Shown: positions 11,246 through 63,610 of the stretch, piece by piece | Numbering within the stretch: the first letter of the stretch is position 1 | Layout: every line of letters begins with the position of its first letter | From: Candidatus Latescibacterota bacterium | GTDB taxonomy: Bacteria > Latescibacterota > CBDEFO01 | Reading direction: 5' to 3' | DNA: 64,000 nt | NCBI GenBank assembly: GCA_965248755.1 | Contig: OZ252149.1 | Span: 4,252,314 to 4,316,313 of the forward strand | The notes under the pieces: model-generated | The model's input: only the letters and a program-made list of their open reading frames with translations | Databases searched by the model: none | What the model was told of the DNA's origin: nothing | Made by a program: the position numbers and the translations under genes

Positions 11246-12605
11246 CAAGTAGCAGCATCTCTTCCCGAAAAGAAGTCAGGTTACTTTGTGTTCTTCGCGC
11301 CTTGACGCTATATCCTGTTCAACCTGGCGCGGTAGCAATGCCCACAGCGCCCGTGAGACCTGCATGACTTAGATACGTTTCGGATAACCTCAGTATAACC
11401 GAAAGCCGATCAAAAGCCTCCAGACCTGATGCGTATTGTCCTCTTTGGGCCCTGCTCCCTTTTCAAATCTGCGAGAGAACTTGTACACTTTCCCCTGAAG
11501 ATGGAGGTAAAACCTGTCACCTTCCTTGCGGCGTTTTATGTCGACTCCGATGTAATCTAATCCTTCCTCCATCCTGTCTATGCCCTCGTCTCCCGAAAAA
11601 GGCACAAGTGCCTCAGCCCTTTCACGGTCGTATTCAAAACCCACCCTAATGTCATTCCAGATCTGATAAGTCGTCCTGAAGAAAGCGTCTCTTTCTTCAT
11701 TCCTGAAGCCCTGCTCTTCTGTGCCTCTCCCGACGTGGTGTCCTACAATCCAATCCCTGTAGATATAGGGGAAGTTGCCAGCGACATCCCCGCTGTGCGC
11801 ATACCAGCCGTTCGGCGCCGAGATCCCTCTCCTCAAAAACCTACTTTCGACGACCTGAAATAGCCTTGCTAACTCTATCCTCAGATCCGCCCTTCCGTCC
11901 CTAAATAGGTCTCCAAGGTACGCACCTATCAAATAAGCACTATTGCGGCCCCAAGGTATTACCCTCCTTGCAAACCCCGGGTACCACACATCGTCTCCGG
12001 CTGTTAAACCATAGAGCTTAACGTAATCGTATAGATATACACTCCCCCCCACCTCAGCGATGGCATTGCCTCTTATATCCCCTGCTGTCTGATTAAGAAT
12101 GCTCTCTATGGGGTTCTCCTTAATGACGCCCCCGACGCTTGCTCCTACAGCGATCTTGTTTAGACCGACATTCCCCATATCACATTCATGAGGGATTGTA
12201 TTTCGATACAATCTTGTTTGTGAATGAATATTACCACTTTTACATTTTTCAACAAGTATTTTTTTCAATTAATTATAGTATTTTCCTCTGAATTATCACT
12301 TTCTTTGTGTTTAAATCCTCCAAATCGGAGACACCTCTCCATCGACTCACAAAAAAATGTGGCAGTTTAAACAGAGTAATATCGCAATCGTTCAATCCGG
12401 GATAATATTTCGGTAAATAAGCTCTTGTCTATCCCAACCTCAGCCATCTGAAACGTGATGTATCTGCTGTGCCTGACAAGCTTCGCGCCAATCTTGATCA
12501 ATGTCACGAGGAGGCTGCCAAGAGACCCCGGGATAATATCAGTGTTTGATTCTCCCTGGAAGAACCAACCGCCTTAGCCCGATTAATTCATAAACTTGCT
12601 GGAGT

Positions 12606-12628
12606 TATTGCGAGGAGCAAAGCGGTCC
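12606..12628. repeat. palindromic element copy (TCCCCGATTGAGTCTATCGGGGA)
   Basis: 7-8 bp perfect stem with 7-nt loop; member of a dispersed family (see findings). Confidence 0.8.
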
Positions 12629-12714
12629 CCGATTGAGTCTATCGGGGAAGCAATCTCAAGGTTTTATAGTGGTCTCCTATGAGAGTCGGAGAGTATTACA
12701 TCTACCACAAGTAA

Positions 12715-12738
12715 CCCCCGATTAAATCTATCGGGGGG
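12715..12738. repeat. palindromic element copy (CCCCCGATTAAATCTATCGGGGGG)
   Basis: Same stem and loop architecture, 109 bp from the previous copy in direct orientation. Confidence 0.8.
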
Positions 12739-12933
12739 ATTGCTTCGCCTTCGGCTTGCAATGACACCGAAGGTGGTTAAACGGCATAACTATAATATAA
12801 TACAATCCCTTAATTAATACACGGACTTTTTTTGTGAATTATTCGCCTCAGAAAGTTTCCAAGATTATAGGCCAGAAGAAATAACCAGAGCCTCACCTGA
12901 TCCCTTTCTGAACCCACATAGCATTGATATCTG

Positions 12934-13317
12934 TCAGGTGATATCTGACAGGCTGTTGAGATTTTCCAACTGAGTCAGTATCTCCGTTTCAAAACGTCCT
13001 ATCGTGTTGGCGCTGGCGGCGTGCTTGCCTTTGCCCTTCTTTCCGGTAATCGCTCGCATTACTGGGTCAACTGGTAAAGGATGAGCATTATTCACAGCTT
13101 CATATCCTGCAAGACGACTGTAAATCGATTGACGCATCAGTGTGGGCATATCATGTTGGATATTAAGTCCTCTTCGTAGATCGTTAAAAAGACTAGATAC
13201 TGAGTCGAATAATCCTAAAACGTCATCGAGGTCACGATACGCAAGAAGACCACCATCAGATGTCACCTTGGCACGATCAAATTCAAGCTTAATAGTTCCA
13301 TCAAATCCCATATTCAT
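12934..13317 (-). pseudogene. IS1380-family transposase, N-terminal fragment
   Basis: 127-aa ORF LEFDRAKVTSDGGLLAYRDLDDVLGL...YSRLAGYEAVNNA matches the conserved N-terminus of IS4/IS1380-type DDE transposases; the catalytic core is missing. Confidence 0.6.
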
Positions 13318-18504: not shown

Positions 18505-18957
18505 CTACGTCAAAACACAAGCATTATCCACATAAAAAAATGTGGAGAGGGAGGGATGTTTGATTGGCCATGCGATCACTGGCCCGCTGCACCAGAGAGT
18601 TAAGGGTCTGTCGAGATTTTCGGCGATCTCCAAAGGTTCTGGGGCAGAGGGAATCTTGAAGAGTTGGCAATACTCCTTGAGGAGGTCCACAACAATAACA
18701 TCAAGGGCTGTCGCTAATCTTCTCAGTGTCCTAATGGAAAAACTGCTGTCGGATTTCTCCCACTTCGTGATAACAGTCCTGTGAACGCCGACCTTCACCG
18801 CTAACTGATACTGTTTCAGCCCGCGCTCCTTGCGAATGTTTCTGAGGTTTTCTCCTACCGTCAAACTTGTCTTCTTTGCTAACGTATGGCTGTTCTGACA
18901 GGATGTCGGATACGTAAATAAAAAGGTAATGCAGTAGAAAACTTGCACCTGGTACAT
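18505..18957 (-). CDS. XRE-family helix-turn-helix transcriptional regulator
   Basis: HTH segment LRNIRKERGLKQYQLAVKVGVHRTVITKWEKS; start uncertain (ORF track extends to 18993). Confidence 0.6.
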   Translation of the reverse strand: MYQVQVFYCITFLFTYPTSCQNSHTLAKKTSLTVGENLRNIRKERGLKQYQLAVKVGVHRTVITKWEKSDSSFSIRTLRRLATALDVIVVDLLKEYCQLFKIPSAPEPLEIAENLDRPLTLWCSGPVIAWPIKHPSLSTFFYVDNACVLT

Positions 18958-18991
18958 TGACAATTTGTTGATCTGTAGCGATATTTGGGAC

Positions 18992-19776
18992 ATGAAAAAT
19001 TGCCCTCGCTGCAGGGGAAGAAAATTTTGGTTACTGAAGACTGGTCAGTTACGCTGTCGGAGGTGTAAATTGACTAGAAAGTTGACCTCCTCCTCCTGGG
19101 AGAAAACTCGAATGTCTCCGTACTGGAAGGGGAGGTTGGTTGAGTATTTTTGTCTTGGTGTTCCTGTTTACCGGTTGCGATTCCATGTTCCATACACGAG
19201 GAAGACTATGGAGCGCTGGTATCGGATCATTCGAAAGGAAATCTACCACCTCACCTTCAAGGAGCTTGAACTCCTTGAAGGTGAGGTGGAAATGGACGAA
19301 ACTCTCTTTGGTGGTAGAAGGCCTGGTAAGAGGGATTGGGGTGCTTTGGGCAAACAGATGGTCTTTGGGATCTATCAGAGAAAGGGTAAGGTGTTGACGT
19401 TTCCTATCTCGTCAAGGAGTCGTGACTCACTGTTGCCTCTTATTACCCAACACATCAAACCAGGGAGCTTATATTACACTGATGATTGGATAGCCTATGC
19501 CTCCCTTTCTATCAGTGGCAACCACGTGGTAGTGCCGAAAGAGAAGGGAATAGCTAGAGGAAGAGATCACCTTAATGGCGTGGAAGGTTTCTGGTCGTAT
19601 GCCAAACACTGGCTTTACCAGCGATCCCCGATTGATTCTATCGGGGAGGTGTTGACAAAAACTCCTTCCACCTTTACCTTAAGGAGATCGAGTGGTGCTT
19701 CAACCATCGCCACGAAAATCTCCTTCCACTTATAAGAAAGCTACTCGATCAACAAGCTGTCAAAGAGCTAAATTAG
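18992..19776 (+). pseudogene. IS1595-family transposase interrupted by a palindromic element
   Basis: N-terminal zinc ribbon CPRCRG...CRRC and DDE core with HLNGVEGFWSYAKHWLYQ; the family-typical C-terminus (KNSFHLYLKEIEWCFNHRHENLLPLIRKLL) is encoded in a different frame immediately after the palindrome at 19626-19648. Confidence 0.7.
19626..19648. repeat. palindromic element copy (TCCCCGATTGATTCTATCGGGGA) inside the IS1595 transposase gene
   Basis: Same family as 12606; sits exactly at the frame break. Confidence 0.8.
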
Positions 19777-19971
19777 TGCAACTTTAGTTATGCATTACCA
19801 ATAAAAATAACATATTTCTAGCGGCATTGGCAACTATTTTCTTGCACATGTAGAGATAATTTGTCATCTTGTGTGCCCAATATAGATTTTTTATTGCTTT
19901 TAACTCTAAAAAAGCTTATATTTTGACGTTGATTATCATCTGCCGATTTAACCTTAAAAGAGGCGTCCGTA

Positions 19972-23499: not shown

Positions 23500-25143
23500 A
23501 TGAAGAAGATCACACCTTTCCATATATTAGCGATCGTTCTTACAGTATTCTTCTGCGCCGTAAGATACATTAGATGGCAGGAGCCTATGGGACTTGACCA
23601 GGGTCTCTTTGCCTACTTCGGAAGACACATCCTCACCGGCAGTGTCCCCTACTTAGACATCTGGGACAGCAAACCTCCCGCTATATTCTATATATACTCC
23701 ATCAGCTTTGCTCTACTGGGGGACTCCTTTTTCAGCGTCTTTCTTAGCGAAACCCTATTCTTGGCTCTCACGGCCCTCTTGATCTATCTTCTGTGCGCAG
23801 AAGTTTTCGATAAGACAGTCGCCCTATTTGCCGCGGCCATCTACGTTCTCTTTTCCAACGCTTCTATATTCGACGGATTCTGGTCCACAGCACAGGCTGA
23901 GGTCTTCATGAACTTGCCCATAGTCGCAAGCTTCTACATCCTCACCAAGAACTTAAGGAGATGGCACTTTTTCGCCTCTGGGGTTCTTCTCGGACTGTCA
24001 GCGATGTTCAAACTTACCGCCCTATTCCTGCTACCCTCTTTTATCCTGTATCTCTACCTATCCTGCAAAGAGAGATCCCCGATTGAAGCTACCGGGGATG
24101 GGATTCACAGGTACACATATTTCGGCATCGGACTTATCATCCCCCTGTCAATCTGCGCCTTCTACTTCTGGATGCAGGGAGCCCTGGACGATATGATTTA
24201 CACACTTGTCTCTTACAGCTACCGGTACTCGCAAGCCATAAACCAGGGACATCCTTTTCTCAAGACTTCCCTTGGACAGGTCATAAGGTTTGTCTATTTC
24301 AACCCCACAGTATCCATTTTATCCCTCGTCGGACTTATATATCTCCTTGTAAAAAGACGTTCTAAAGAAACGTATCTTTTAATATCCTATCTTGTGCTAT
24401 CCTTTATTTCGGTCTGTGCGCAAAGACAGTTTGCAGGGTACCACTTCATCGTGCTCTCTCCTCCGCTTGCCGTTATCTGCGGCAGTGCATGCCCCGTTAT
24501 ATTCAACTGGATAGTCCAAGTCGTGCGACCACTCCGTAGTGCAAGGACGATCCTCCGCAAAAGATCCTCAAAGCCTCTGCTCAGGTCATCGGCAGCTATT
24601 ATGACAGTTGTATTATTAGCCTCCCTTCTTTACGCGGACATTTCCCGTTATTATCGGTACTACAAACCCGACATCGCCTATGCTCTTGGAAAGATCCCCG
24701 AAAGACAATATCTAAAGACCTTTGACAGGGGGGCAATATCCTTTCTGAATAACAACTCTGTAGCTGACTATATAAAAAATAGGACCGATAGTGACGACTA
24801 TGTCTTGGTATGGGGATTAGCTCCTGCTATATATTATCTGTCAGACAGAAAATCTCCCACAAAATACGTCTTCCACCACGTTCTGTTGACCGACGCTCCG
24901 CTGTCCCTCACTCTTGGCGGACTTGAAGAAAGGAGGAGGGAATTCATAGATAAAGTAAGTGAAAGCAAGCCCCGTTACATCGTCATAGGCATCAACGACA
25001 GGAACGGCTTTGAGCCGCAGGACTCCTACACTCAGCTTCTCAATTTCAAAGAGCTCAAGGACTATGTCTTTACAAACTACGATAGAGAGAAAAGAATCGG
25101 GAATTTCATCCTTATGAGGAGAAAAGACCAGAAAGTACTTTAA
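23500..25143 (+). CDS. polytopic membrane glycosyltransferase-like protein (GT39/GT83, ArnT/PMT-like)
   Basis: Start moved to the ATG after the terminator; multiple TM helices; family assignment tentative; contains an in-frame palindromic element at 24076-24098. Confidence 0.5.
   Translation: MKKITPFHILAIVLTVFFCAVRYIRWQEPMGLDQGLFAYFGRHILTGSVPYLDIWDSKPPAIFYIYSISFALLGDSFFSVFLSETLFLALTALLIYLLCAEVFDKTVALFAAAIYVLFSNASIFDGFWSTAQAEVFMNLPIVASFYILTKNLRRWHFFASGVLLGLSAMFKLTALFLLPSFILYLYLSCKERSPIEATGDGIHRYTYFGIGLIIPLSICAFYFWMQGALDDMIYTLVSYSYRYSQAINQGHPFLKTSLGQVIRFVYFNPTVSILSLVGLIYLLVKRRSKETYLLISYLVLSFISVCAQRQFAGYHFIVLSPPLAVICGSACPVIFNWIVQVVRPLRSARTILRKRSSKPLLRSSAAIMTVVLLASLLYADISRYYRYYKPDIAYALGKIPERQYLKTFDRGAISFLNNNSVADYIKNRTDSDDYVLVWGLAPAIYYLSDRKSPTKYVFHHVLLTDAPLSLTLGGLEERRREFIDKVSESKPRYIVIGINDRNGFEPQDSYTQLLNFKELKDYVFTNYDREKRIGNFILMRRKDQKVL
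24076..24098. repeat. palindromic element copy (TCCCCGATTGAAGCTACCGGGGA) inside a coding sequence
   Basis: 19 of 21 identity to the family consensus; 6-bp stem; read-through in frame as RSPIEATGDG. Confidence 0.6.
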
Positions 25144-34076: not shown

Positions 34077-34099
34077 TCCCCGATAGATTCAATCCGGGA
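34077..34099. repeat. palindromic element copy, inverted orientation (TCCCCGATAGATTCAATCCGGGA)
   Basis: Reverse complement matches the family consensus with one mismatch; intergenic. Confidence 0.7.
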
Positions 34100-61534: not shown

Positions 61535-61819
61535 GTGGATCGAGATGCTCTCTTCGACTTTACTTGCTCTGGCTGTGGCCAGACATCCTTCTGGAGTTGG
61601 GATTGTCGGCAATTCAGGATTAGGGATCTGTCAGTTTTTGAATTTAAGGCCTACCTGATCATAGATAAATATCGCACCAATTGTCCAATCTGCGGGGTGA
61701 AGATTGAAGGACTTGACTTTGTTGATTCTTATTACCGATGCACTGCCGAACAATGGATTAAGGTAGGCAAATATGCTCTGAACTGGGTCCGGCTATCATG
61801 CCAGCGTCCCCGATTGTGA
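61535..61819 (+). pseudogene. ISL3-family transposase, N-terminal fragment
   Basis: CSGCG...RIRDLSVFEFKAYLIIDKYRTNCPICG matches the zf-ISL3 N-terminal pattern; ORF stops at the palindromic element. Confidence 0.5.
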
Positions 61820-61852
61820 TCCCCTATTGAATCTATAGGGGAGCGGGGATCA
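61807..61852. repeat. compound palindromic element (TCCCCGATTG + TGATCCCCTATTGAATCTATAGGGGAGCGGGGATCA)
   Basis: Contains the family loop TGAATCT in a nested hairpin; sits between the ISL3 and IS1380 fragments. Confidence 0.7.
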
Positions 61853-61853
61853 G

Positions 61854-62096
61854 GTGAGGCTCTGGTTATTTGTTCTGGCCAATAATCTTGGAAACTTTCT
61901 GAGGCGGTTGGTTCTTCCAGGGATAATCAAATACCGCTCTCTTGGCAGCCTCCTTGTGAAATTGATCAAGATTGGCGCGCAGATTGTCAGGCACAGCAGA
62001 TACATCACGTTTCAGATGGTTGAGGTTGGGATAGACATGAGGTTATTTGCCGAAATATTATCCCGGATTGAACGATTGCGATGTTACTCTGTTTAG
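61854..62096 (+). pseudogene. IS1380-family transposase, C-terminal fragment
   Basis: LANNLGNFLRRLVLPGIIKYRSLGSLLVKLIKIGAQIVRHSRYITFQMVEV matches the conserved C-terminus; near-identical DNA to 12368-12560 on the opposite strand. Confidence 0.6.
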
Positions 62097-62263
62097 AAGC
62101 CTTGTGAAATAGTTATCTTGTAGGCAGCGTCTGAAACGTCTATTATGGGTCAAACAGTAGCATATCGTATCGTTTTGCTATGGAATAAGCAAAATAGTCT
62201 CATCAGAGTTCTGGTCAGCAAGGAATAGAAGCTGTTTGAAGAACAGGATGCACTGTCTTTGAA

Positions 62264-63610
62264 GGGTCTGTCAGTTTTTTTGTGTAAATGGGATTTTCTT
62301 CTGTACCCTTTTCGGCTTATTCTATACCAAATCTCCCCTCGAAGTGGATGGAGAATTGGTGAATGGCCAAGCTCCAGTTCCTGATCGGCATCGTCCATTT
62401 TTTCTTGATATTCTTGAGTGTCATATAGAGTAACTTAATCGCTGTCTCGTCGTTTGGGAAGCTATTTCTGTTCTTTATTACTTTCCGTAGAGAGTTATTA
62501 AGCGATTCGATGGCGTTTGTGGTATAGATCACCCTTCGGATCTCTTCAGAGTAGGCGAAAAACGGGATGATCCGAGACCAGTTATTCTGCCACGATTTAC
62601 TTATCATCGGATAACGGCTGTCCCAAGCCTCCTGAAAATCTCCAAGGGCCTCTTCAGCCTGTTCTACCGTGGGGGCTCGGTATATATTCTTGAGGTCGGC
62701 GGCAATCTTCTTACGATCCCTATACGACACGAACTTCAAGGAATTCCTCACCACATGGACAATACAGAGCTGGACCTCTGCTTGGGGAAATACGGATTCA
62801 ATAGCCTCTGGAAGACCCTGGAGACCATCCACGCAAGCTATCAACACATCGTTCATCCCCTGATTCTTAAGCTCCGTGAAAACTTGCAGCCAGAACTTCG
62901 CCCCCTCGCTCTTTGCAATCCAGATACCCAAAACGTCTTTCATCCCATCCAGACCGACCCCTACCGCAAGATACACCGCCTTGTTTACGATCCGGCCTTC
63001 GTCTCTAATCTTCATCACCAGAGAATCAAAGAATACTATGGGATACACCCCTTCCAAAGGACGATCCTGCCACTGCTTCACCTCTGATATGATCCCATCG
63101 GTCACAGTCGATATCAAATCAGGGGACACCTCTACACCGTATATCTCCTCCAAATGAGCCTGTATATCACGTGTGGTCATCCCTCGGGCATACATAGACA
63201 GTATCTTATCATCAAAACCTGTAAATCGCCTCTGCCCCTTCCTCACTATCTGCGGATCAAACTGACTGTTCCGATCCCGTGGCACCGATATCTCCAGATC
63301 ACCATAATCTGTCTTCAATCCCTTTGTGCTCCTACCGTTGCGCGAATTACCGCTGTTCCTCCCTTCTGGAGAACTCTTATCGTAGCCTAACTCATACGTA
63401 AGCTCTGACTCCAGAGCCCGCTCAAGAATCGCCTTCGTCAACTGCTTCAAAAGACCTTCCTCACCAATTATGTCTTCCGGCTTCTTGTAGTCCTTCAAAA
63501 GCTCATCAATCAACTTCGGGTCTAGCTTGTCCATGTAAGAACTCCTTATGTAAATGGTGGCCAACTAATATAACTCATTTCCCCATTTACACAAATTTCC
63601 TTACACACCC
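62264..63610 (-). mobile_element. IS256-family insertion sequence, copy 2 (intact transposase), no TSD
   Basis: Same termini as copy 1; flanks TCTTTGAA and ACGAAATC differ. Confidence 0.85.
62317..63564 (-). CDS. IS256-family (mutator-type) transposase
   Basis: 415 aa uninterrupted; typical IS256 sequence features. Confidence 0.9.
   Translation of the reverse strand: MATIYIRSSYMDKLDPKLIDELLKDYKKPEDIIGEEGLLKQLTKAILERALESELTYELGYDKSSPEGRNSGNSRNGRSTKGLKTDYGDLEISVPRDRNSQFDPQIVRKGQRRFTGFDDKILSMYARGMTTRDIQAHLEEIYGVEVSPDLISTVTDGIISEVKQWQDRPLEGVYPIVFFDSLVMKIRDEGRIVNKAVYLAVGVGLDGMKDVLGIWIAKSEGAKFWLQVFTELKNQGMNDVLIACVDGLQGLPEAIESVFPQAEVQLCIVHVVRNSLKFVSYRDRKKIAADLKNIYRAPTVEQAEEALGDFQEAWDSRYPMISKSWQNNWSRIIPFFAYSEEIRRVIYTTNAIESLNNSLRKVIKNRNSFPNDETAIKLLYMTLKNIKKKWTMPIRNWSLAIHQFSIHFEGRFGIE

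Follow-up and report, generated by a model that had tools for sequence, protein, structure and literature searches.

The IS1595 element and its interrupted transposase gene

A 64-kb stretch (64,000 nt, hereafter the window) of contig OZ252149.1 from a Candidatus Latescibacterota bacterium carries an insertion sequence (IS) of the IS1595 family at 18925-19799. The transposase gene of this element is interrupted after codon 210 by a short palindromic hairpin. The locus is made up as follows.

18917-18924 (no strand): left 8-bp target-site duplication AATAAAAA, read directly off the sequence
18925-19799 (+): whole insertion sequence of the IS1595 family, 875 nt long, or 855 nt once the extra 20 nt are left out, its ends set by the inverted repeats
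18925-18948 (+): left terminal inverted repeat GGTAATGCAGTAGAAAACTTGCAC, 24 nt, 79% complementary to 19776-19799 (repeat search)
18992-19621 (+): N-terminal part of the transposase in the original frame, 210 codons (MKNCPRC...HWLYQ), from Pfam and a 21-homologue alignment
19622-19647 (+): patch CGA-T-CCCCGATTGATTCTATCGGGG-A, 26 nt in place of TATCGC, net +20, from DNA alignments with two related copies, L001 and L028
19625-19647 (+): palindromic element with the 8-bp stem TCCCCGAT/ATCGGGGA and the 7-nt loop TGATTCT; 21-nt core at 19626-19646 plus a closing T:A pair
19639-19775 (+): displaced C-terminal coding part YRGGVDKNSFHLYLKEIEWCFNHRHENLLPLIRKLLDQQAVKELN with stop, in frame -1 relative to the N-terminal part (three-frame translation)
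19776-19799 (+): right terminal inverted repeat, pairing with 18925-18948 (repeat search)
19800-19807 (no strand): right 8-bp target-site duplication AATAAAAA, the same octamer as on the left

The inverted repeats, 24 nt each, are imperfect, and AATAAAAA flanks the element on both sides. Terminal inverted repeats and an 8-bp target duplication are known properties of the IS1595 family (ISfinder). The open reading frame (ORF) starting at ATG 18992 matched the Pfam model DDE_Tnp_IS1595 (PF12762, ISXO2-like) with E = 1.5e-19 and 71 bits against a cut-off of 27, the match spanning only model positions 2-130 of 153. The zinc ribbon of the family (PF12760) was weak, 21.8 bits against a cut-off of 25.4, with the motif CPRC...CRRC visible. 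When the window protein was conceptually repaired, 846 homologues were retrieved at E <= 1e-10, mostly of 253-258 aa, and those listed carry PF12762. Instead of a single uninterrupted ORF of about 254 aa, the window copy has a frame broken after codon 210 by 20 additional nucleotides; it is an IS1595 member by descent, but a disrupted one. No second IS1595 copy, intact or other, was found within the window.

The original prediction, made from the window alone, held that the ORF is conserved up to HWLYQ and then ends early, and this was borne out. The family sequence is followed to GFWSYAKHWLYQ (codon 19619-19621), continues as RSPIDSIGEVLTKTPSTF... and terminates at the stop codon 19733-19735. 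The C-terminus typical of the family was likewise found intact past the hairpin in the -1 frame, as YRGGVDKNSFHLYLKEIEWCFNHRHENLLPLIRKLLDQQAVKELN from position 19639 to the stop at 19773-19775. This displaced part (YRG[G]VDKNSFHLYLKEIEW...) matches P0001, the protein of the closest homologue, except for an extra G, an R to C and a P to L change. In the alignment of 21 homologues, every full-length protein reads HWLY(Q/H/P)-(Y/F)RG(V/I)-..-FHLYLKE.EWRFN.R unbroken.

The bases concerned were defined by comparison with L001, the marine-metagenome contig that encodes P0001 in a 254-codon ORF without interruption. L001 and the window element are 98.1% identical in DNA over all 855 shared positions, with 20 gap columns besides. 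At the break site the window reads CAG CGATCCCCGATTGATTCTATCGGGGA GGT GTT, where L001 has CAG TAT CGC GGT GTT; the more diverged L028, from a Latescibacterota metagenome-assembled genome (MAG), has CAA TAT CGA GGC GTT. The predicted replacement of a short stretch with a shift of frame can thereby be given in full: the six nucleotides TATCGC of the intact copy have become 26 nt (19622-19647), and the net gain of 20 nt therefore changes the frame of the C-terminus. None of the intact homologues contains the hairpin, in agreement with the prediction. In an alternative alignment the ancestral TATC(G) is kept in the right arm, with 17 nt added before and 3 nt after it. The hairpin itself consists of TCCCCGAT at 19625-19632 and ATCGGGGA at 19640-19647, an 8-bp stem around the 7-nt loop tgattct; 7 of the 8 bases of its right arm, TATCGGGG, were already present at the ancestral site. 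Folded as single-stranded DNA, the 49 nt around it adopted exactly this hairpin, at -9.2 kcal/mol and z = -2.9 compared with dinucleotide shuffles.

Codon differences between the window element and L001 comprise nine non-synonymous and six synonymous changes. Derived substitutions at conserved positions of the window transposase (KRGWG to KRDWG, HTKPG to HIKPG and EWRFN to EWCFN) are consistent with decay. In the alignment, few parts of the IS1595 family are conserved as well as the lost segment FHLYLKE.EWRFN.R, and the broken frame would have cost the transposase its function. The window element is most probably a dead, decaying copy that has lost its conserved C-terminal ~45 residues.

Two further observations concern the element. 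The ORF of an HTH_3 (XRE-type) regulator (18505-18993, - strand) runs with its 5' end into the left IS end, and IS1595 therefore seems to have inserted just upstream of, or into the start of, this gene. Within the transposase coding sequence, 19246-19264 and 19271-19289 form a perfect inverted repeat of 19 bp (CCACCTCACCTTCAAGGAG cttgaa CTCCTTGAAGGTGAGGTGG). It is also present in the intact L001 and, less perfectly, in L028; it was rejected as an insertion, the length being unchanged relative to the IS1595 family.

The hairpin family and its filled and empty sites

With the pattern CCCCGAT-N7-ATCGGGG and up to two mismatches, six copies of the 21-nt palindrome were counted in the window against 0.32 expected. 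Six copies were reached in none of 100 shuffles, and the hairpin is therefore more frequent than chance would give. Besides the copy in IS1595, the following were found.

12627-12647 (+): copy with exact arms, site 1 of a ~270-nt repeat; empty paralogous sites in L063 and L007
12716-12736 (+): copy with loop TAAATCT, site 2 of the ~270-nt repeat; empty paralogous sites in L059, L067, L079 and L011
24077-24097 (+): diverged copy, in frame in a PMT_2/GT87-type glycosyltransferase gene, encoding SPIEATGD
34078-34098 (-): intergenic copy between divergent genes (aminotransferase / AIR-synthase-related)
61821-61841 (+): copy with the compensated arm change CCCCTAT/ATAGGGG, nested between partial arms tccccgat...cggggatc

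In a scan of one genome per species the hairpin was found at 81 or more loci, and 57 of those listed came from a single long-read MAG, Candidatus Latescibacterota CBDEFO01; others among the matches listed were from several 'Deltaproteobacteria' MAGs and a Geobacter MAG. The 57 loci, taken as 8-kb chunks (~0.46 Mb, about 10% of the MAG), and the window, which is not among them, contained 138 copies with up to three mismatches, 70 of them exact. Other repeat families are also common to the window and this MAG at 85-98% identity (12572-12845, 62090-62262), and the two therefore probably come from related organisms. No matches to the hairpin were found in viral contigs, and Rfam has no entry for either the hairpin or the 270-nt repeat and matched only a tRNA.

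The family is dispersed and has the form (R)Y-CCCCGATTGAnTCTATCGGGG-R(Y), with the stem consensus AT-CCCCGAT...ATCGGGG-AT. The loop is asymmetric, and the copies are therefore oriented; no bias of orientation with contig position or GC skew was observed. Flanks and covariation were profiled in 114 copies with unique flanks and up to two mismatches. The 7-nt loop TGAnTCT was kept in 96 of these. Position -2 was a purine in 89%, -1 a pyrimidine in 96%, +1 a purine in 93% and +2 a pyrimidine in 69%. The closing pair -1/+1 was of Watson-Crick type in 82% compared with 47% expected from composition, and the next pair outward showed no covariation. Loop variant and type of closing pair (T:A or C:G) are correlated (chi-square test, p = 0.004); the pair is thus inherited and travels with the element. 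Judged from these profiles, the mobile unit is ~23 nt long, Y + CCCCGATTGAnTCTATCGGGG + R. Stem and loop are conserved across phyla, in Latescibacterota, several 'Deltaproteobacteria' MAGs and Geobacter. Long ORFs hold fewer copies than their extent would predict: they cover 80% of the sequence and contain 30% of the copies. About half of the copies lie in mosaic contexts, beside their own partial copies, inside longer palindromes or inside repetitive extragenic palindromes (REPs) of the GTAG type. The copy at 61821 (window 61800-61860), between tccccgattgtgat ... agcggggatc, has an arrangement that recurs many times in the MAG, and a second outer context, (C)GTCATTGCGAG...GAAGCAATCTC, flanks 13-15 of the 114 copies at MAG loci.

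Some copies lie in multicopy DNA, and paralogous empty sites therefore exist. Seven filled/empty comparisons could be made, in IS1595, IS256-like elements and the 270-nt repeats. In each the hairpin was acquired, with a net gain of 19 to 27 nt, and the family has thus repeatedly entered other repeated DNA. The events are written in element orientation, and the row for the IS1595 of the window uses A after TATCG, as in L028.

IS1595, window: empty CAG[TATCG]AGG, filled CAG[CGAT+core]AGG, +20
270-nt repeat, site 1: empty GCG[ACG]AAGC, filled GCG[GT+core]AAGC, +20
270-nt repeat, site 2: empty CACAG[AATCG]GGATT, filled CACAG[TAAC+core]GGATT, +20
IS256-like end (L018): empty CTGAT[CG]ACACA, filled CTGAT[core]ACACA, +19
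IS256-like (L022): empty TTGCA[ACGG or ACAG]TACAG, filled TTGCA[GC+core+T]TACAG, +20
IS1595 in L028, site C: empty between T and A, filled with core and a scrambled left flank, +21
IS1595 in L028, site A: empty TCAAT, filled with core + A and a 5-nt TCAAT duplication, +27

The junctions are clean on the right side and have extra or changed bases on the left. Neither length nor duplication is constant, and target bases are often replaced; no uniform rule (a fixed length, a fixed duplication, or 19 nt between C and G) was found to fit all seven events. In four to five of the seven, a CG of the target (often ATCG) has stayed in place, in register with that of the right arm. With a CG frequency of 5.1%, the chance of at least four in six is about 1e-4, the register being a post hoc choice. 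Between other paralogue pairs the difference consists of partial arms of 10-12 nt or tandem units of 27 nt. A metagenome scan with a gapped junction pattern for other filled or empty copies of the window IS gave no matches.

The repeats that received the hairpin, and some other loci carrying it, were inspected as well. The diverged IS1595 of L028 (positions 1-900; CBDEFO010000008.1, 768-776 kb) has been hit by three family hairpins at three places, and the third palindrome sits where ~55 nt of the IS are missing. The ~270-nt repeat at 12572-12845 is MITE-like (miniature inverted-repeat transposable element), with inverted ends (GTCATTGCGAG... / ...CTCGCAATGAC) and two hairpins. It adjoins a DDE_Tnp_1_4 transposase fragment (12934-13317) and is present in at least 12 copies of 85-98% identity in the Latescibacterota MAG, some without one or the other hairpin. 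A ~170-nt repeat at 62090-62262, with at least 13 MAG copies (~92% identity), adjoins an IS256/Mutator-family transposase gene (62317-63564) and is probably the end of this neighbouring IS; the IS256-like copies of the MAG (L018, L022) have hairpin insertions at two different sites. The copy at 24077-24097 lies inside gene 23500-25143, which encodes a PMT_2/GT87-type membrane glycosyltransferase, and the Pfam PMT_2 match ends exactly there. Fifteen homologues (up to 48% identity) have a gap of 4-11 residues, mostly 7-10, at SPIEATGD, and the hairpin is probably a tolerated in-frame insertion, as with the Rickettsia palindromic elements (RPEs). Hairpin variants lie just downstream of an H+-pyrophosphatase gene in a 'Deltaproteobacteria' MAG (L008, 1855-2132) and in the Geobacter MAG (L009, 7158), which suggests a conserved terminator-like or RNA-level role there. 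In L029 (3800-4400 and 6900-7150), tandem 27-nt units (GCCTGT + CCCCGAATGACTCTATCGGGG) are located upstream of tandemly duplicated genes for secreted proteins of ~750 aa and run into their signal-peptide region (..LGLSPNDFIGDL..).

Origin of the insertion and alternative explanations

Very probably, one member of an oriented, REP-like repeat family of high copy number has inserted secondarily into an otherwise complete IS1595 in the window, by which TATCGC gave way to 26 nt and the transposase was put out of frame, leaving a copy without its C-terminal ~45 residues that is most probably dead. That the hairpin and the change of frame are instead a native programmed frameshifting device of the IS, with a stimulatory stem-loop and no insertion, is very unlikely. 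A stem-loop does stand at the junction of the frames, and slippage by -1 on the run A5 (19657-19661) would bring them together again. The 98%-identical copy and all full-length proteins (254-261 aa) among the 21 aligned homologues are single ORFs without the hairpin, and the hairpin is therefore not taken for a frameshift signal. It is moreover identical to a genome-wide repeat and lies upstream, not downstream, of the A-run, a canonical slippery heptamer is absent, and frameshifting is not known from the IS1595 family; this explanation is already largely refuted. Equally little probability is given to a palindrome that arose in place, by quasi-palindrome correction or fold-back synthesis from TATCG.GG and not from the repeat family. 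The pre-existing match to the right arm speaks for it. Local fold-back would, however, give CCGCGATA and not CCCCGAT with the family loop, the left arm and the loop TGATTCT are identical to those of 12 other copies with unique flanks (10 with exact arms), and the arms are identical to those of the 70 exact copies elsewhere, so that membership in the family contradicts an origin in place. An error of sequencing or assembly is the least probable source of the extra 20 bases: artefacts do not make a perfect copy of a 23-nt genomic repeat, and in L028, from an independent long-read assembly, another IS1595 has been broken by hairpins of this family at three other sites.

It is improbable, though less so than the preceding alternatives, that the interrupted IS still functions, its C-terminal ~45 residues being dispensable or supplied by low-level frameshifting, or the element being mobilised in trans by an intact copy elsewhere. 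Its inverted repeats and target duplication are intact, and the catalytic region up to N..E..K (NGVEGFWSYAK) lies upstream of the break. The strong conservation of the lost segment, the Pfam model cut at 130 of 153, the derived substitutions at conserved positions and the lack of a second IS1595 copy in the window are evidence against continued function.

Some points weigh against the preferred reading of a secondary insertion into a now dead element. The ancestral base after TATCG is C in L001 and A in L028, and the replaced bases are certain only to within 1 nt. Two relatives of the transposase, P0102 (L088/L089) and P0110 (L090), have an in-frame TAA four codons past the break of the window with a conserved frame downstream, and they seem to persist, which also favours an IS that still functions; the C-terminal part of IS1595 may, to judge from these two, be regulated or partly dispensable. 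Past the TAA, which follows the HWLYQYRGV codons, a conserved KQYFHLYLKEIEWRFN... continues in frame in these relatives, with mostly synonymous differences between the two copies, a hint that in a subfamily of IS1595 the stop codon is read through or the C-terminal extension is regulated. A recurrent hot spot at the break point was considered and rejected: relatives ending near YRGV lack the hairpin, with the in-frame TAA in P0102 and P0110 and an ordinary frameshift in P0119.

As to the mechanism, we infer that the hairpin would have been introduced as a short copy-templated patch, by a template switch or by gene-conversion-like copying from another hairpin copy. The patch would be anchored on short homology, for example on the pre-existing TATCG.GG that matches the right arm. 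Such a patch is tentatively placed ahead of enzyme-mediated transposition, and the commitment is weak. It is favoured because junction sizes are heterogeneous and target bases are replaced, because CG or ATCG stays in register in four to five of seven events, and because additions of partial arms of 10-12 nt occur. It is further favoured because there is no strand bias, no Y1 transposase in the window or the 57 MAG chunks (~0.46 Mb), and elsewhere only housekeeping genes as neighbours. Against a templated patch, direct repeats of 5-6 nt resembling target duplications flank 8 of the 114 copies compared with 0.9 expected, and the conservation of stem and loop across phyla argues for recognition by a protein. 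No donor copy was identified; and a cognate enzyme could easily have escaped an inspection that covered ~10% of the MAG and, of the source genome, 64 kb.

The competing mechanism, in which a Y1 (HUH) REP-associated transposase or another hairpin-specific nuclease or integrase moves the ~23-nt hairpin as single-stranded DNA and the untidy junctions result from repair, is a serious possibility as well. It would leave the insertion itself unchanged. The high copy number and orientation of the family, its conservation across phyla, the inherited closing pair and the excess of direct repeats agree with it, and a precedent is well established in REP systems with REP-associated tyrosine transposases (RAYTs; PMC3116915, PMC8266576). 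In L007, L029, L071, L080 and L085 of MAG CBDEFO01 the hairpin occurs together with classical GTAG-type REPs (GTAGGGGCGAGG ... CCTCGCCCCTAC), which sometimes enclose it, and a RAYT system is therefore probable in this MAG. A hairpin-carrying MAG also has Y1_Tnp genes (L041, Pfam 2.4e-16). However, the RAYT-like gene of L012 has a hairpin of another sequence, GGGAGGGG-N5-CCCCTCCC, on its flanks, and the family hairpin lacks the GTAG tag and any strand or GC-skew bias of the sort that lagging-strand transposition of single-stranded DNA should leave. Net gains of +19 to +27 with replaced target bases also differ from IS200/IS605-type single-strand transposition, which is precise. The closest class of repeats, the CGTC-type REPs, has no associated transposase (PMC3733652), which counts against an enzyme too. 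A partner was searched for with RAYT probes and an HUH...Y regular expression over 2334 ORFs; only two Y1-like genes were found, both in a 'Deltaproteobacteria' MAG (L041, L012) and neither flanked by the hairpin. A gene common to the neighbourhoods of the hairpin in low-copy genomes was rejected: the neighbours of ten loci in other genomes were housekeeping genes only (among them H+-pyrophosphatase in two genomes, nusA/infB, groEL, hsp20 and rimP). The densest hairpin cluster, in L029, contains duplicated secreted-protein genes and no transposase.

A bolder and rather doubtful extension of the templated mechanism is that the ~23-nt hairpin spreads without any transposase of its own, being copied into half-matching sites (..ATCG.G..) through template-switch or gene-conversion patches at replication forks. 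If true, CGTC-type and untagged REP hairpins would thereby gain the explanation of their spread that has been missing, and the filled/empty pairs would be the first evidence for it at the level of junctions.

Significance and relation to known repeat families

A pseudogene disrupted by a repeat, and not a pair of small ORFs, is how the IS1595 copy should be annotated. In genomes of this lineage the 21-23-nt hairpin ought to be masked or entered as a repeat family; it also lies in frame in at least one apparently live gene. Disruption of an IS1595 transposase gene by a REP-like hairpin is in itself an ordinary event of a known kind. REP-type hairpins are abundant, and the route by which they insert is poorly understood. 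Comparisons with empty sites are rare because most REP-type copies lie in unique intergenic DNA. Here the hairpin landed in multicopy IS1595, an IS256-like IS and the 270-nt repeat, so that the ancestral sequences are known and the junctions can be read. The specific value of the locus is thus a set of junctions before and after insertion for a class of repeats whose propagation is unexplained.

Quasi-palindrome template-switch mutagenesis is described by the Ripley model. The event in the window resembles it in the short palindrome-perfecting patch, the replaced target bases and the microhomology at the junction, and differs in that the patch copies the family loop and arm from elsewhere in the genome and not from the local arm. 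MITEs are, like the hairpin, non-coding with inverted termini, and a minority of the hairpin copies have 5-6-nt direct repeats. MITEs are, however, 70-300 bp long with terminal inverted repeats of 15-30 bp, while the hairpin is ~23 nt without such repeats or a constant duplication and has no matching parent IS. The hairpin was accordingly rejected as a MITE: it is too small, has no such termini, and shows no fixed duplication, with direct repeats at only 8 of 114 copies. RPEs are palindromic repeats inserted within protein-coding genes, which the in-frame copy at 24077 resembles; they are ~100-150 bp compared with ~23 bp, and the insertion in IS1595 is out of frame and destructive.

REPs are divided into GTAG-tagged, RAYT-associated repeats and CGTC-tagged repeats in the survey of Di Nocera et al. 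2013 (PMC3733652). With GTAG-type REPs and their inverted doublets, the REPINs, which are associated with RAYTs (TnpA_REP; PMC3116915, PMC2817692, PMC8266576), the hairpin has in common a high copy number, a mainly extragenic location and clustered or nested copies. It differs from them in that GTAG does not stand at the foot of the hairpin in the 114 unique copies (GTAGAC/GTCTAC occurs near 21 of them only), that no hairpin-flanked RAYT was found in the window, in ~0.46 Mb of the MAG or at L041 and L012, and that singlets are common and junctions imprecise.

The CGTC class, which includes dRS3 of Neisseria and RPE-4 and RPE-6 of Rickettsia, has 8-9-bp stems starting with A-T pairs, 4-5-nt loops, a CCA tail and no dedicated transposase (PMC3733652). 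The survey also records REPs that lie within genes or are nested in other small palindromes. Like these repeats, the hairpin is a short dispersed stem-loop whose stem (8 bp in the IS copy) begins with an A-T pair; it is mosaic or clustered with other repeats, occasionally intragenic, and has no adjacent transposase gene at the ten loci in other genomes or in the window. The Geobacter and 'Deltaproteobacteria' variants, cTGTC-AT-CCCCGA...TCGGGG-AT-CCA, have tag, AT-first stem and CCA tail. The hairpin differs from the class in its conserved 7-nt loop TGAnTCT. Most copies in Latescibacterota and the window lack the CGTC/TGTC tag and the CCA tail. TGTC occurs in the variants from Geobacter and 'Deltaproteobacteria' and in a cctgtCCCCGAATGAC subfamily; the IS copy, with the left flank CCAGCGAT, has no such tag. 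Latescibacterota are not among the phyla reported for the class. Membership in the CGTC class is not established because of the loop length and the inconsistent tag. By analogy, the hairpin is REP-like and architecturally nearest to the CGTC type, and it appears to work like a CGTC-type or untagged REP.

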